Positions 15,377-26,835 of a DNA stretch of 29,355 bases are shown here, in pieces. The notes under the pieces were generated by a model. That model did no database searches. It was not told where the DNA came from and worked only from the letters and a program-made list of their open reading frames with translations. How positions within the stretch are numbered: position 1 is the stretch's first letter; every line of letters starts with the position of its first letter. The translations under genes and the position numbers were made by a program. Source of the DNA: a virus (lineage: Duplodnaviria; Heunggongvirae; Uroviricota; Caudoviricetes); IMG/VR virus record IMGVR_UViG_2541047722_000019; one strand, written 5' to 3'.

Positions 15377-15727
15377 TTAAAGCCCCATCGCAACAGCCAG
15401 ACAGACCGCTGCAACAATCAGTGCACGGCGGATTAACGCAGCAGAAAACACCAGGTGAAGGCCGGTCTGTACCGGGAAACGCCCATCAGCCATCAGCCTG
15501 TCGTCATGTTTCAGGTACTGACCGGGACGGGCTTTGGGGAAGAGCGAACGGTCAAGCCAGTAACCCAGCACTGCTGCCAGCGTGATGAGTGCCAGCTTGT
15601 AGATCACAACAGGCAACTGCTGTGGCGAGACCAGAGCGATGGTGCCCAGCAACAGCACTGAGGTCAGCAGCCAGCCGCTGAGGCGAGGTTTTTTAACAGG
15701 GGGAATGAATTTTTTCAGGTTTTTCAT
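15377..15727 (-). CDS. Holin-like membrane protein (first late cistron)
   Basis: Three predicted hydrophobic helices. ATG 15727 has GGAG 6 nt upstream; the track ORF extends to GTG 15760. Sits directly upstream of the endolysin gene. Confidence 0.45.
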   Translation of the reverse strand: MKNLKKFIPPVKKPRLSGWLLTSVLLLGTIALVSPQQLPVVIYKLALITLAAVLGYWLDRSLFPKARPGQYLKHDDRLMADGRFPVQTGLHLVFSAALIRRALIVAAVCLAVAMGL

Positions 15728-15857
15728 GTGTGTCTCCTTGTCTGGTGGAGACAGCATCACAAATACAGGGCGCGAAGGATTTTAAAGCGCGTTAAGAGAG
15801 CCGGGGATACGGGATGTGCAGGATAAACGATGAATTATTCACAGAGGAGAATACGAT
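15728..15857. promoter_or_regulatory. Divergent promoter region (late operon leftward, cargo operon rightward) with RBS-overlapping inverted repeat
   Basis: 130-bp gap between divergent starts 15727 (-) and 15858 (+). Perfect inverted repeat TGTCTCC(9)GGAGACA at 15731-15753, whose one arm is the GGAG ribosome-binding site of the late gene. Confidence 0.4.
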
Positions 15858-16601
15858 ATGACGCAGACACTGAATCCGGTCATCACTGTCACCGTGTCCG
15901 GTCCTGTGGGCAGCGGTAAAAGTTACATATTGGCGCGGATAGAGGAAGTGGTGAAACAGGAATTCGGGGGCAGCGTCATTGTCGATGCTGCAGACGTAGA
16001 TGATGAGCGGCGTATGAGTGGCGATGATCTGACGACCTGGCAGAAGCCACGGGGTGGCACAGTGATCAGGCTGGAGGAATACACGGGACAGGGCCTGTTG
16101 TCATACGGCGAGGAGCGTATCTGTCGGACGAATGAGCTGCTGGATGTTATATGCCCCACGGGCCGGCAACCCTGGATACTGCCCGATGCACTGCATGCCA
16201 CCATTGCGGCACTGATGACAGTTTACGATCAGGAGCTGCTCATGAAGGAGCTACGTAAACTCACCGGTCAGCCAACAGAATGTTTTTCTGCCCCGAAGTA
16301 CGGGAAACAGGAACACATCCCGGTGAACACGCTCCCCGTTAACCAGCCTCCCCGGTTCTTCGACGAATACATTCTGACACCGGAAAATAAAGCTGAGCAC
16401 GAAGAGATCAAAGCGGCGTTGTTCCGGGAAATCAGGAAGATTGCTGAAATGCAACTGGGGGGCGGGCTGGACAGAGTGATGGCGAGAGGAGAATGGGAGT
16501 CGCTGTTTGAAAGAGTTTCCCCGGAATTACTTCCCCTCGCACTGGCTATCGGGATTATGCAGACAGCGGATAAACCTCACTTACGTTCATTAAACACGTA
16601 A
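15858..16601 (+). CDS. P-loop NTPase of unknown function
   Basis: ATG with AGAGGAGA 7 nt upstream. Walker A GPVGSGKS at residues 15-22. No resemblance to phage structural, lysis or transposition proteins that I recognise. Confidence 0.6.
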   Translation: MTQTLNPVITVTVSGPVGSGKSYILARIEEVVKQEFGGSVIVDAADVDDERRMSGDDLTTWQKPRGGTVIRLEEYTGQGLLSYGEERICRTNELLDVICPTGRQPWILPDALHATIAALMTVYDQELLMKELRKLTGQPTECFSAPKYGKQEHIPVNTLPVNQPPRFFDEYILTPENKAEHEEIKAALFREIRKIAEMQLGGGLDRVMARGEWESLFERVSPELLPLALAIGIMQTADKPHLRSLNT

Positions 16602-16981
16602 CGCATAATCCGGGATACGCATTCAGCGATGACTGCATTTTCACCGGTTTTTACTGCATCCAGAAGTGACTCTTTAAATGGTGCGGGCCGGGGCTGCAGA
16701 AGGGTCGGCGTGGCATTGAGCAGACGGAGCGTTTTTTCCGTGAGGACGACATCAGCCGCTCCCACAGCCAGCAACTGAGAGTAACGAATATAGCTGTTAT
16801 CCCGAAGCCATATCAGCGTATCAATAAAATACCGGCACTTTTTCTGGTCGTGATCAACCTGGTCCGGGATATCGAAAAAACCAGAATAAATCAAAACCTG
16901 AGGTGCCGGATGCGTGTTCAGTAATCGGCAGAATATTTTGCCGGTGAGTGCATAAAAATCATCATTTAAGGAGTGCATCAT
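16577..16981 (-). CDS. Hypothetical protein, convergent with and overlapping the P-loop gene 3' end
   Basis: 134-codon ORF that exactly fills the 378-bp stretch where the plus strand has no ORF. 3' ends overlap by 25 bp (16577-16601). Lower GC by eye. Confidence 0.4.
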   Translation of the reverse strand: MMHSLNDDFYALTGKIFCRLLNTHPAPQVLIYSGFFDIPDQVDHDQKKCRYFIDTLIWLRDNSYIRYSQLLAVGAADVVLTEKTLRLLNATPTLLQPRPAPFKESLLDAVKTGENAVIAECVSRIMRYVFNERK

Positions 16982-17195
16982 GAATCCCCGATTAACGTTA
17001 ACAGAACATCAGCGCCGTGCTGAAGCAGTGAACAATGTTCTGGAAGATATTATCCGGTTACATCGCGGAGAACTGAGTGTCTGTCGTGCCGCTTTTCATT
17101 TTCAGGGAATACAAAAGCAGTTTGATACTTCTGTTTTTGCAGAAGGTATTACTTATGCCCTGGACCGGATAAGGTCAGAAAATCGCCCCGGATAA
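16980..17195 (+). CDS. Small hypothetical protein
   Basis: 71-aa ORF with AAGGAG 7 nt upstream of ATG. Its start codon is back-to-back with the start of the minus-strand ORF, so both are unlikely to have independent promoters. Confidence 0.3.
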   Translation: MNPRLTLTEHQRRAEAVNNVLEDIIRLHRGELSVCRAAFHFQGIQKQFDTSVFAEGITYALDRIRSENRPG

Positions 17196-17251
17196 TCCCT
17201 AAACCACATTAACAGAAATCCCACTATCCCTGCCGCATCATGAAAGAACGA

Positions 17252-17282
17252 CCAGCCCGGTGCTTCGGACCCACCGGGCTGG
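17252..17282. other. GC-rich perfect hairpin (11-bp stem, CTTCGG-containing loop)
   Basis: CCAGCCCGGTG-cttcggacc-CACCGGGCTGG. No clean T-tract on the plus strand; a weak one (TCGTTCTTTCA) on the minus strand. Confidence 0.35.
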
Positions 17283-17386
17283 CCATCGTCCCACAGAAGT
17301 GGCTGTGAGCCGACCGAGGTTCAGTCAGTCTCGCGAGACCAGACTAGCCTGCCATATTTTTAATAATTGTAAAAGGCTTACAGATT

Positions 17387-18151
17387 ATGAAAATGAAGAC
17401 ATTACCCATCGTTCCATGGATTGGTGGCAAACGTCGCCTGGCAAAACACATCCTGCCGCTGTTTCCGGCGCATGAATGTTATGTGGAGCCGTTTTGTGGG
17501 GCAGCAGCGCTCTATTTTCTTAAGACACCCGGCAAGATCGAAGTCATCAATGATATCAACGGTGAACTGGTGAATCTGTACCGGGTGGTAAAGCATCACC
17601 TGGAAGAATTTGTCCGCCAGTTCAAATGGGCGCTGGTCAGCCGTCAGATCTACAAATGGCTGCAGATCACCCCGGAAGAAACACTGACGGATATCCAGCG
17701 TGCGGCACGGTTCTACTACCTTCAGAAGCAGGCGTTTGGCGGCAAGGTGGCAGAGCACAGCTTCGGTACCTCCACCACATCCCCGCCACGCTTCAACCTG
17801 CTGCGTATTGAAGAAGAACTGTCAGCAGCACACCTGCGGCTTTCCAGAACAGTCATAGAACACATGGACTGGCAACAGTGCATTGAGCGTTATGATCGTC
17901 CGCACACACTGTTCTACTGCGACCCACCGTACCTGGGTACGGAAGGCTATGGTGTGGATTTTCCTGAAGGGAACTACTCGCGGCTGGCAGAGCTGGCCCG
18001 GTGCATCAGAGGAAAAATGATAATTTCGGTGAACGATATCCCACAGATGCGCGAGGTGTTCACTGGACTGAACATACAGACAGTGAACATCAACTACAGT
18101 CTGGCGGGGAAATCTACGCCGCGCCGTGAACTGGTAATCTGCAACTTCTGA
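17387..18151 (+). CDS. dam: N6-adenine DNA methyltransferase, Dam family (orphan, no adjacent restriction gene)
   Basis: N-terminal WIGGKRRL and VEPFCGAAALYF (SAM-binding motif I) plus FYCDPPY catalytic motif. 254 aa, close to E. coli Dam in size and motif order. Confidence 0.85.
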   Translation: MKMKTLPIVPWIGGKRRLAKHILPLFPAHECYVEPFCGAAALYFLKTPGKIEVINDINGELVNLYRVVKHHLEEFVRQFKWALVSRQIYKWLQITPEETLTDIQRAARFYYLQKQAFGGKVAEHSFGTSTTSPPRFNLLRIEEELSAAHLRLSRTVIEHMDWQQCIERYDRPHTLFYCDPPYLGTEGYGVDFPEGNYSRLAELARCIRGKMIISVNDIPQMREVFTGLNIQTVNINYSLAGKSTPRRELVICNF

Positions 18152-18181
18152 AACAAAACCGGAAAGCACAATGCTTTCCGG
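18151..18181 (-). terminator. Intrinsic terminator for the repressor transcript
   Basis: Perfect 10-bp stem CCGGAAAGCA / TGCTTTCCGG with 3-nt loop, followed on the minus strand by TTTTGTTT. Lies 87 nt after the repressor stop. Confidence 0.5.
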
Positions 18182-18267
18182 TAAACCAAACAACTTCCAC
18201 TATGTCACTGGCGATGTTTTCTGAAAGCATCCAGATCAACCACCTGTCCTTTGTGTCCAGGTCAAAA

Positions 18268-18606
18268 TCAGCCTGCGAGTTTGCTTGGTTTGGGTTGAAT
18301 GAAGACTTTGCCGACCTCAAGAATTGCCCTCCGTTGTTCGGGGCTCATTTCGTCGAATGCATCCATTAACTCTTTCTTTTCTTGTGACACATAAGGTGCA
18401 ACAACAGGCTGACTCCGCACCCCAGTAACTACATACAAAATATCTACACCGATTTCTGATAGTGCAGATAACTGCACTGCAGTAGGAGAAGTGCGATCTT
18501 TTTCCCAATCAATGAAAGTTCTCTTTGCCACACCTATAGCATCAGCCAACCCTTGCTGTGTAAGAGATAGACGCTCTCTTTCTTCTTTAATACGTAACCC
18601 GATCAT
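18268..18606 (-). CDS. Prophage repressor, HTH XRE family
   Basis: MIGLRIKEERERLSLTQQGLADAIGVAKRTFIDWEKDRTSP is a classic XRE helix-turn-helix. The track ORF starts with GTG inside the divergent ner-like gene; ATG 18606 is the likely start and has no obvious SD (possibly leaderless). Confidence 0.7.
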   Translation of the reverse strand: MIGLRIKEERERLSLTQQGLADAIGVAKRTFIDWEKDRTSPTAVQLSALSEIGVDILYVVTGVRSQPVVAPYVSQEKKELMDAFDEMSPEQRRAILEVGKVFIQPKPSKLAG

Positions 18607-19266: not shown

Positions 19267-20178
19267 ATGGGACGCACCAAATCACCGATTAACACTGAAC
19301 TGAACGCCGAGGTACCGCTGTCGGATGATCTCAATGTCAGTCTGAACGCCATGACACAGCATCGTATGGAGATCATGCAGCAGTTTGGCGATGGTCAGCC
19401 CTATGAGCGTGATCGCATAGTTCATGAGGCTCGGTTTTATATGGCACAGAGCGCTGAGGCCATGCTGGAAGCAGGTAAACGACTTATTATTCTCAAAGAA
19501 AATGAACCTCACGGGGACTTTGTTGGAATTGTAGAAGAACAACTTGGTCTGCATGTGCGCGCAGCACAACGAATGATGAAAGCATCTTTGAAATACCTTT
19601 CACCAAAACTAGAGCCAAAAGCGACAACGTTGTCGCTTTTAGGTAAGGCAAAATTATTTGAACTTGTTGCTGAAGATGACGACGACCTTGCTGAACTGGC
19701 CGACGGTGGCACAGTTGCCGGACTGACGCTTGACGATGTTGATCGCATGTCAGTACGTGAATTGCGTCAGGCCCTGCGCGAAGCGCGCGAAACCAACGCA
19801 GCACAACAGCGCGTACTCGCCGACAAAAATGAAAAAATAGACTCACTCTCCACCAGACTGGAGAAGAAATCCCGTATTCAGCCACCTGAGCCTGATGAAG
19901 AGGTGAAGAAACTGCGGGCAGAAGTGACCGCGTTAGCGGTTGAGGCGGAATCTGCCATCGCCGTTCGACTGTCCAGCGCTTTTGAGACGCTGTGCGCATA
20001 TTGTGCTGAAAACATGATTGATACCCCCAGAGACTTCATGGCAGGCCTGGTCTGTCAACTGGAAAGCACAGCGCGTAGCCTGCGCTCCACATTTGACCTG
20101 CCGGACGAGCCAACAGGCAATGCAGCGCCTTCATGGCTGACTGAGCCGACGCCACAGATTAACGGGCTGGAGGCATAA
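19267..20178 (+). CDS. Hypothetical early protein, acidic with coiled-coil segments
   Basis: 303 aa, AAGGAG 6 nt upstream; stop 3 nt before the transposase ATG. No motif recognised. Confidence 0.5.
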   Translation: MGRTKSPINTELNAEVPLSDDLNVSLNAMTQHRMEIMQQFGDGQPYERDRIVHEARFYMAQSAEAMLEAGKRLIILKENEPHGDFVGIVEEQLGLHVRAAQRMMKASLKYLSPKLEPKATTLSLLGKAKLFELVAEDDDDLAELADGGTVAGLTLDDVDRMSVRELRQALREARETNAAQQRVLADKNEKIDSLSTRLEKKSRIQPPEPDEEVKKLRAEVTALAVEAESAIAVRLSSAFETLCAYCAENMIDTPRDFMAGLVCQLESTARSLRSTFDLPDEPTGNAAPSWLTEPTPQINGLEA

Positions 20179-26757: not shown

Positions 26758-26801
26758 TTCCTGCTTGTTAAAGTCCTTTCAAAAATCTCCTTATTGTATA
26801 A

Positions 26802-26835
26802 AAGCACGGTAGACCCCTTACCGTGCTTTTTTTAT
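26802..26835 (+). terminator. Rho-independent terminator ending the early operon
   Basis: Perfect 10-bp stem AAGCACGGTA / TACCGTGCTT, 7-nt loop, followed by TTTTTTTAT. Confidence 0.65.

Follow-up and report, generated by a model that had tools for sequence, protein, structure and literature searches.

What is the role of a long and perfect hairpin that lies in a short intergenic gap of a transposable prophage, and on which strand does it act? The hairpin, here called HP3, was found in a stretch of 29,355 nucleotides of phage DNA that was analysed as a whole and is referred to below as the window. HP3 is housed in the 191-nt gap (17195 to 17387) between a 71-aa ORF (16980-17195, plus strand) and a D12-class methylase gene (17387-18151, plus strand), which agrees with the position between a small ORF and a methylase gene given by the initial annotation. 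Reading the sequence confirmed the 11-bp perfect hairpin at 17252-17282: its core arms are CCAGCCCGGTG (17252-17262) and CACCGGGCTGG (17272-17282), separated by the 9-nt loop CTTCGGACC at 17263-17271, and the stem is GC-rich as reported, 9 of the 11 pairs being G:C. Perfect hairpins with a stem of at least 11 bp occur at three sites in the 29-kb window (17252, 18158 and 26800), while only 4 of 100 dinucleotide-preserving shuffles contained any, which argues that HP3 is real and not a product of chance. The structure had also been called very stable, and folding of the 56-nt HP3 region bore this out, giving -36.0 kcal/mol (z -5.5) for the minus strand and -25.3 kcal/mol (z -4.0) for the plus strand. 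No T-run follows the stem on the plus strand, where the sequence reads CCATCGTCCCACAG, so that the absence of a plus-strand T-tract was correctly noted.

Two features of the original description held only in part. The 11-bp stem seen on the plus strand is correct as a core, but in minus-strand RNA five additional pairs (G.U, G-C, U.G, A-U and G.U) lengthen it to 16 bp (17247-17287). The CTTCGG loop is present here, but is confined to this E. coli lineage and is not a general feature of the element; other lineages have 6-8-nt loops of different sequence, and across lineages the loop or spacer measures 6-9 nt. Elsewhere in the window, a minus-strand terminator with the tail UUUGUUU lies at 18158-18182 after the repressor gene, and the long perfect hairpins at 19617-19640 and 26800-26830 have A-run and T-run flanks like those of bidirectional terminators.

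The window represents a BcepMu-like transposable prophage carried by E. coli. A prophage of SK1144 and of other E. coli strains matches this region at 100% identity, and 556 of the 5,426 complete E. coli genomes (~10%) contain similar prophage DNA, ST131-type clinical strains included, as do many other Enterobacterales. The nearest named phage is PhiKM, which is classified in Bcepmuvirus. Outside the right end of the window (L001 29187-29699), the prophage is inserted in a sulfonate ABC-transporter ATPase gene; the interrupted gene is upstream of ssuC, in the ssuB position, and remains as a truncated gene. The minus strand carries, leftward, the holin, transglycosylase, spanin-like, head and tail genes, and further right the HTH repressor gene c (18268-18606). 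On the plus strand are dam and the early operon, with a Ner-like gene, a transposase gene adjoined by an ExeA-family ATPase gene (the MuB position), Gam and others, the last gene of this operon encoding a Mor-family activator. Since the late genes and the repressor gene are both on the minus strand, transcription of the latter runs in the direction of the lysis genes. The two genes most relevant to HP3 are:

17387..18151, plus strand: dam, a D12-class N6-adenine DNA methyltransferase gene (Pfam PF02086), right of the block described below

15377..15727, minus strand: the holin gene, first of the lysis/late operon and the gene that a terminator would shield

HP3 had been described as isolated. 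This was not the case, as two further conserved hairpins adjoin it on the right (17290-17309 and 17317-17350), and in minus-strand RNA HP3 is the last of three hairpins, HP1, HP2 and HP3, which together make up a block with the following parts:

17241..17353, minus strand: the whole three-hairpin RNA block, ~113 nt, the match of covariance model R1

17317..17350, minus strand: HP1, AGUC / GUCUCGCGAGAC / GACU plus a basal helix

17290..17309, minus strand: HP2, CUCACAG / variable loop / CUGUGGG

17247..17287, minus strand: HP3 extended stem, 16 bp, from minus-strand RNA folds

17252..17282, minus strand: HP3 core, an 11-bp perfect stem plus 9-nt loop, from the sequence read, the shuffle test and covariation

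17240..17251, minus strand: U-rich tail UCGUUCUUUCAU, directly 3' of the HP3 stem, where between-lineage similarity stops

Klebsiella phage KP12 and Phi06_2974B resemble the window from a sharp boundary at 17240, in the minus-strand U-tract, as far as dam; left of 17240 the window is unrelated to either. HP1 is built around the palindrome GTCTCGCGAGAC, and its apical palindrome covaries among lineages, with GUCUCGCGAGAC, GUUCUCGAGAAC, GUCGUCGAUGAC and GUCAUCGAUGAC all occurring. HP2 can be extended to 12 bp in relatives through GUUGAC arms, and its basal U.G pair is changed to U-A in one locus (L081). These HP2-flanking GUUGAC...GUUGAC arms (window 17284-17316; also in L194 and L210) give the 12-bp HP2 by pairing with each other, and this longer HP2 overlaps the 5' strand of the HP3 extension, leaving two alternative pairings next to the terminator.

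Pattern scans of viral, genome and metagenome collections found the block in approximately 120 loci. The covariance model R1, built from 54 distinct block versions, was then used to search loci fetched by way of the holin protein and recovered nine divergent homologues at 52-72 bits, compared with 117 bits for the block of the window; all nine were on the holin strand and upstream of holin. Counting these nine divergent lineages, more than 120 related phage and prophage loci carry the block, in genera that include Pantoea, Mixta, Buttiauxella, Trabulsiella, Erwinia and Pseudocitrobacter. A comparison of the block with Rfam 15 gave nothing at or above the gathering threshold in the window or in four related loci, the best sub-threshold match being a plant miRNA family (20.9 bits against a threshold of 85), and a tRNA/tmRNA search gave no match. 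The literature on BcepMu, on small RNAs of Mu-like prophages and on the block sequence itself contained nothing on this element; the paper on the HnrS sRNA has lambdoid prophages as its subject. The three-hairpin block of BcepMu-like enterobacterial phages is thus previously undescribed, being absent from Rfam and from the literature. Between lineages, the sequence identity of the block follows that of dam and holin or is lower, so that the idea of a block more conserved than coding sequence was unsupported: conservation is at the level of structure and not of sequence. A 22-codon ORF running from an ATG at 17240 through the hairpin was also discarded, as indels shift its frame and other lineages have TTG or GTG in place of the start. 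One contig (L181) carries two block copies of different sequence types (742-852 and 1377-1487), which flank a 148-aa ORF on the holin strand and a duplicated 5' dam fragment, and this double copy suggests recombination between lineages at the block.

Covariation was examined in an alignment fitted to the minus-strand model R1, a procedure that favours the modelled structure and also underlies the strand count given below. With the divergent copies included, 97.6% of cells in the block were paired and 14 of its 31 pairs had changed on both sides, as had 9 of the 16 pairs of HP3; these covariation values were reached by none of 500 shuffles. Among close relatives alone, both-side changes occurred at five HP3 pairs. 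The pairs that depart from Watson-Crick geometry are strongly asymmetric. Read on the minus strand, they comprise 198 G.U cells and 36 mismatches, and read on the plus strand, 21 G.U cells and 213 mismatches, indicating that the selected structure is a minus-strand RNA. The compensatory paths themselves pass through minus-strand G.U pairs: C-G to U.G to U-A at two stem positions, and A-U to G.U to G-C, all three states being found, at the pair adjoining the HP3 core. In the HP3 extension, 100% of cells pair when read on the minus strand, against 53% on the plus strand. Plus-strand pairing is 86% for HP2 and 93% for the HP3 core, compared with 98-100% on the minus strand. Of 13 lineages, the minus-strand fold was the more stable for HP3 in 12 and for the whole block in 11. 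A counter-signal comes from two plus-strand helices that contain plus-strand G.U pairs, one at the base of HP1 and the other a long-range helix that covers the Shine-Dalgarno region of dam. A small AU-rich hairpin (window 17358-17374; UUUUA / loop / UAAAA) is found between HP1 and this Shine-Dalgarno; its loop varies, one pair has changed in a compensatory way between lineages (C-G to A-U), and it could form on either strand.

Taken together with what lies 3' of the stem, these data make it probable that HP3 is the stem of a Rho-independent terminator for minus-strand (leftward) transcription that closes the conserved three-hairpin RNA. A weak minus-strand terminator was among the options offered by the initial annotation, and it is the one favoured by the comparative evidence: the strand-specific pairing, the U-rich tail and the context in relatives. 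The stem-loop is stable and GC-rich, and a U-rich tract follows it on the transcribed strand, moderate in the window and better in the divergent homologues. In the window the minus-strand tail is UCGUUCUUUCA, an interrupted and mediocre U-tract with 6 U in its first 9 nt and a single U among the first three. In the divergent homologues the stems differ and the U-tails behind them are better, GCUCUUUUUU, GCUCUUUUUA or GCUCUUUUC, and no A-run lies on the opposite side, so that the element is unidirectional. The segment GAAAGAACGA is identical in all matched loci (44 distinct versions, 118 of 120 loci) except L072, where it carries a compensated change. A terminator scan called the hairpin itself as a minus-strand terminator in KP12 (17 pairs) and in L194 (14 pairs plus CTCTTTTTTA), and called a sub-hairpin of HP3 in the window. 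In KP12 no other terminator-like site was found between the repressor/lipoprotein operon and the hairpin. L204 lacks dam; there a DUF7424 lipoprotein gene on the holin strand, itself preceded by a repressor-like gene, ends in the stop codon at which the block begins, and in L213 and L214, also lacking dam, only the 3' half of HP2, HP3 and UUUUU are found, directly after such a same-strand gene.

Other observations count against termination at HP3, or against termination alone. The nearest upstream minus-strand gene in the window is c, which has its own good terminator at 18158-18182, and no minus-strand gene is annotated between the repressor gene and the block, nor is a same-strand upstream gene evident within 900 nt, so that no transcription unit for HP3 to end is evident in this particular prophage. 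HP1 and HP2 are structurally conserved though a plain terminator has no need of them, and a predicted plus-strand promoter for dam could also explain the boundary of conservation. We infer from the sequence both actual termination at HP3 and the promoter that would feed it in this prophage. Compared with the Rho-independent terminators of enterobacteria and their phages, HP3 shares the GC-rich 11-16-bp stem, the short loop, the 3' U-rich stretch, the location at the end of a transcription unit in some relatives, and a structure that is conserved while its sequence drifts; it is unlike them in that the U-tract of the window is interrupted and two extra conserved hairpins precede the stem. An RNA stability element had been proposed as well, and a stabilising role at the 3' end is compatible with a terminator.

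The surrounding promoters bear on what HP3 might do on either strand. Published work on Mor/C-dependent promoters of Mu describes a 16-bp imperfect dyad centred at -43.5 and a -10 element, but no -35 element (PMC2582627), an architecture also reported in PMC4390567. The dyads in the window fit this plan, and the phage encodes a Mor-family protein. Two such promoters are predicted in this part of the window:

15753..15795, minus strand: predicted late (lysis) promoter, with the dyad TTAA-N6-TTAA at 15795-15782, a 23-nt spacer and GATGCT at 15758-15753

17199..17241, plus strand: predicted activator-dependent dam promoter, with the dyad CTAA-N6-TTAA at 17199-17212, a 23-nt spacer and CATCAT at 17236-17241

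The predicted lysis promoter lies upstream of the holin ATG at 15727, and the same arrangement precedes two other late operons, with dyads at 8397-8384 and 2480-2467 (minus-strand reading). The common pattern before the lysis, head and tail operons, (C/T)TAA-N6-TTAA, 23 nt and a weak -10-like hexamer (GATGCT, CAAACT and CATACT), looks like a putative Mor-family activator site that would define a set of late promoters. On the plus strand, a dyad, 23-24 nt, CATCAT, CATGAT or CATCCT, and a further 0-6 nt precede the block in 169 of 175 locus copies. The predicted dam start (~17245-17250) coincides with the beginning of the conserved block, and this geometry would predict an activator-dependent dam transcript whose 5' leader contains the entire block. 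Transcription of the two strands at different times is thus possible, and HP3 might then also lie at the 5' end of the dam mRNA.

In relatives with a simpler layout, 75-106 nt separate the tail of the block from the start of the holin gene, and the late-promoter dyad lies in this interval. Compared with these, the window has three ORFs (15858-17195) inserted between the block and the late promoter, of 247 aa with a P-loop (plus), 134 aa (minus) and 71 aa (plus), and the dyad at 17199-17212 is a degenerate copy left beside the block after this insertion. Other lineages carry other cargo here, such as a 188-aa ORF in KP12, and the interval between late promoter and block appears to be a hotspot for accessory genes. 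Several simple-layout relatives (L004, L010, L024, L052 and L058) have a single dyad for two divergent promoters; it seems to serve both the leftward holin promoter and the rightward dam promoter, whose -10-like hexamers are ~61 bp apart. We know of no description of a Mor/C-type site shared by a divergent promoter pair. The holin leader (15732-15752, minus strand) has a potential hairpin, GUCUCC / loop / GGAGAC, whose 3' arm includes the Shine-Dalgarno AAGGAG 5 nt before the holin ATG; the hairpin is conserved in relatives and may act as a translational restraint on holin. Three other roles for HP3 or the block were considered and set aside. HP3 as the Mor/C activator site of the promoter at 17199-17212 conflicts with the varying spacing between lineages and with the covarying arms. 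The block as a late-operon leader with an attenuator of the lambda Q type conflicts with the dyad-plus-hexamer pattern, which lies downstream of the terminator and also precedes two late operons that have no block. A strong gyrase site of the Mu type would be expected at the centre, and the element is ~11 kb from the early end of a ~35-38-kb genome.

That HP3 might work on the plus strand, as the 5'-terminal stem-loop of a late, activator-dependent dam mRNA that it would stabilise, or whose translation it would control together with downstream helices, the minus-strand features being incidental, is an unlikely explanation, though one with several observations in its favour. The motif NTAA-N6-TTAA, 23-24 nt, CA..T, 0-6 nt that precedes nearly all copies of the block has the dyad geometry seen before the three late operons and matches the Mor/C plan (PMC2582627, PMC4390567); it would place the dam start 2-7 nt before the HP3 stem, and the plus-strand helix UGUGAGCC/GGCUUACA, which has plus-strand G.U pairs, could cover the dam Shine-Dalgarno region. 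There is a resemblance here to the Pmom/com-mom system of Mu, where a DNA-modification gene of a transposable phage also is driven, as dam apparently is, by a late promoter dependent on a Mor/C-family protein (PMC2582627), and where a structured leader that may occlude the ribosome-binding site precedes the gene; unlike that system, the enzyme is a D12 Dam-type methylase and not Mom, and the selected RNA structure is on the opposite strand. No Com-like protein is present in the RefSeq annotation of the phage. The 5' UTR of ompA offers another parallel, with its stabilising stem-loop at the 5' terminus of the mRNA. HP3 would likewise be a very stable hairpin a few nt from the 5' end if dam starts at ~17245-17250, but the pairing signal is on the other strand and the element also occurs without dam. 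Plus-strand pairing is not what has been maintained, given the excess of plus-strand mismatch cells and the half-paired five-pair extension, and the A/G polymorphisms that favour the plus strand may sit in unpaired linkers. Nor is the block always linked to dam: L204 keeps the whole block, with compensatory changes, and L213 and L214 keep the terminator part, all in the absence of dam. A copy without dam in Pantoea stewartii was uninformative, being interrupted by a transposase-encoding (IS-like) insertion. Because selection for pairing acts on the minus strand and the block persists where dam is absent, we rank a dam leader behind a minus-strand terminator. The protein-binding site suggested by the initial annotation fared worse. 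An inverted repeat acting as DNA, whether bound by a dimeric protein (e.g. the Mor-family activator, the repressor or the transposase) or extruded as a cruciform, would suit two arms that form a perfect palindrome in intergenic regulatory DNA near predicted promoters, but neither a conserved half-site nor a fixed spacing was found: complementarity is conserved between lineages while the arm sequences are not, the spacer varies, the distance to the dyad motif changes by 7-14 nt between lineages, and the likely activator site is a separate AT-rich dyad. The covarying arms and the strand-specific tolerance of G.U pairs point to RNA rather than duplex DNA, and we regard a DNA site as very improbable.

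A separate minus-strand small RNA gene of ~110-120 nt, with a promoter near the dam start codon and HP3 as its terminator, would refine a terminator role for HP3 rather than contradict it, and we hold it as a tentative possibility. Such an RNA would be fully complementary to the late dam mRNA leader and could be a cis-antisense regulator of dam, or could act in trans. The three structure-conserved hairpins with a terminator at the end have the form of a small RNA, and the window lineage has a promoter candidate in the appropriate place:

17366..17393, minus strand: weak candidate sigma-70 promoter, TTTTCA, 16 nt, TACAAT (read from 17393 to 17366)

An A-rich hexamer (GAAAAT or AAAAAT) is found 2-4 nt upstream of HP1 in nearly all lineages, TTGACG-18-AAAAAT lies directly upstream of the block in L204 where dam is missing, and the predicted opposite-strand dam promoter would make the small RNA and the dam RNA overlap by ~110 nt. 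Set against this, none of the promoter candidates is conserved, TACAAT being TGCAAT or TTCACG in other lineages, the -35 for GAAAAT matches at only 3 of 6 positions, and the opposite strand of the candidate region, with the dam Shine-Dalgarno and start codon, places a further constraint on its sequence. In L204 and L213 an mRNA simply ends with the block or with its terminator. Scans for exact complementary words and for duplexes with other phage genes gave nothing above background, and, as noted above, neither Rfam nor the literature searched has a family or record of it. Lambda OOP and P22 sar are short structured cis-antisense phage RNAs that end in an intrinsic terminator and are encoded opposite a regulatory or accessory gene of the phage, at its leader or its end. 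The block would resemble them as a short structured RNA ending in a terminator opposite the dam leader; it differs in having no sequence relationship to them and in that its overlap with a target depends on a predicted dam promoter. The fuller proposal, that the block is an undescribed small RNA family of the BcepMu-like phages of Enterobacterales, transcribed leftward from the dam start, acting antisense or in trans and insulating the lysis operon, is more doubtful still. If true, the RNA would brake the late, Mor-activated dam mRNA or act in trans, in addition to insulating the lysis operon.

Returning to HP3 as a minus-strand terminator, the arrangement of the locus suggests how it would work. 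A leftward RNA polymerase would pass through HP1 and HP2 before the GC-rich stem of HP3 (11-16 bp) formed, and the transcript would be released within the U-tract that follows, exactly where between-lineage similarity ends. The block sits between the immunity/dam region and the predicted activator-dependent late promoter for holin, endolysin and virion genes. Transcription from the repressor side, whether from the c operon, from accessory genes beside it or from antisense transcription across dam, would be kept out of the late promoter and the lysis genes, and the leftward transcripts would gain a stable, structured 3' end. The interpretation given in the initial annotation is therefore partly supported; what it missed was the larger structured block and the location of HP3 relative to the late lysis promoter. 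HP3 is most likely an element of a common type, placed where it makes sense, and what is modestly new is the conserved block and its possible antisense relation to a late dam transcript. With a prophage as widespread among E. coli as this one, a correct transcription map is useful both for annotation and for work on prophage induction. With the holin and endolysin genes lying in the direction of repressor-gene transcription, a reliable stop before the late promoter would prevent lethal leak-through, and HP3, if it is such a stop, would be part of the wiring that keeps the lysogen alive.
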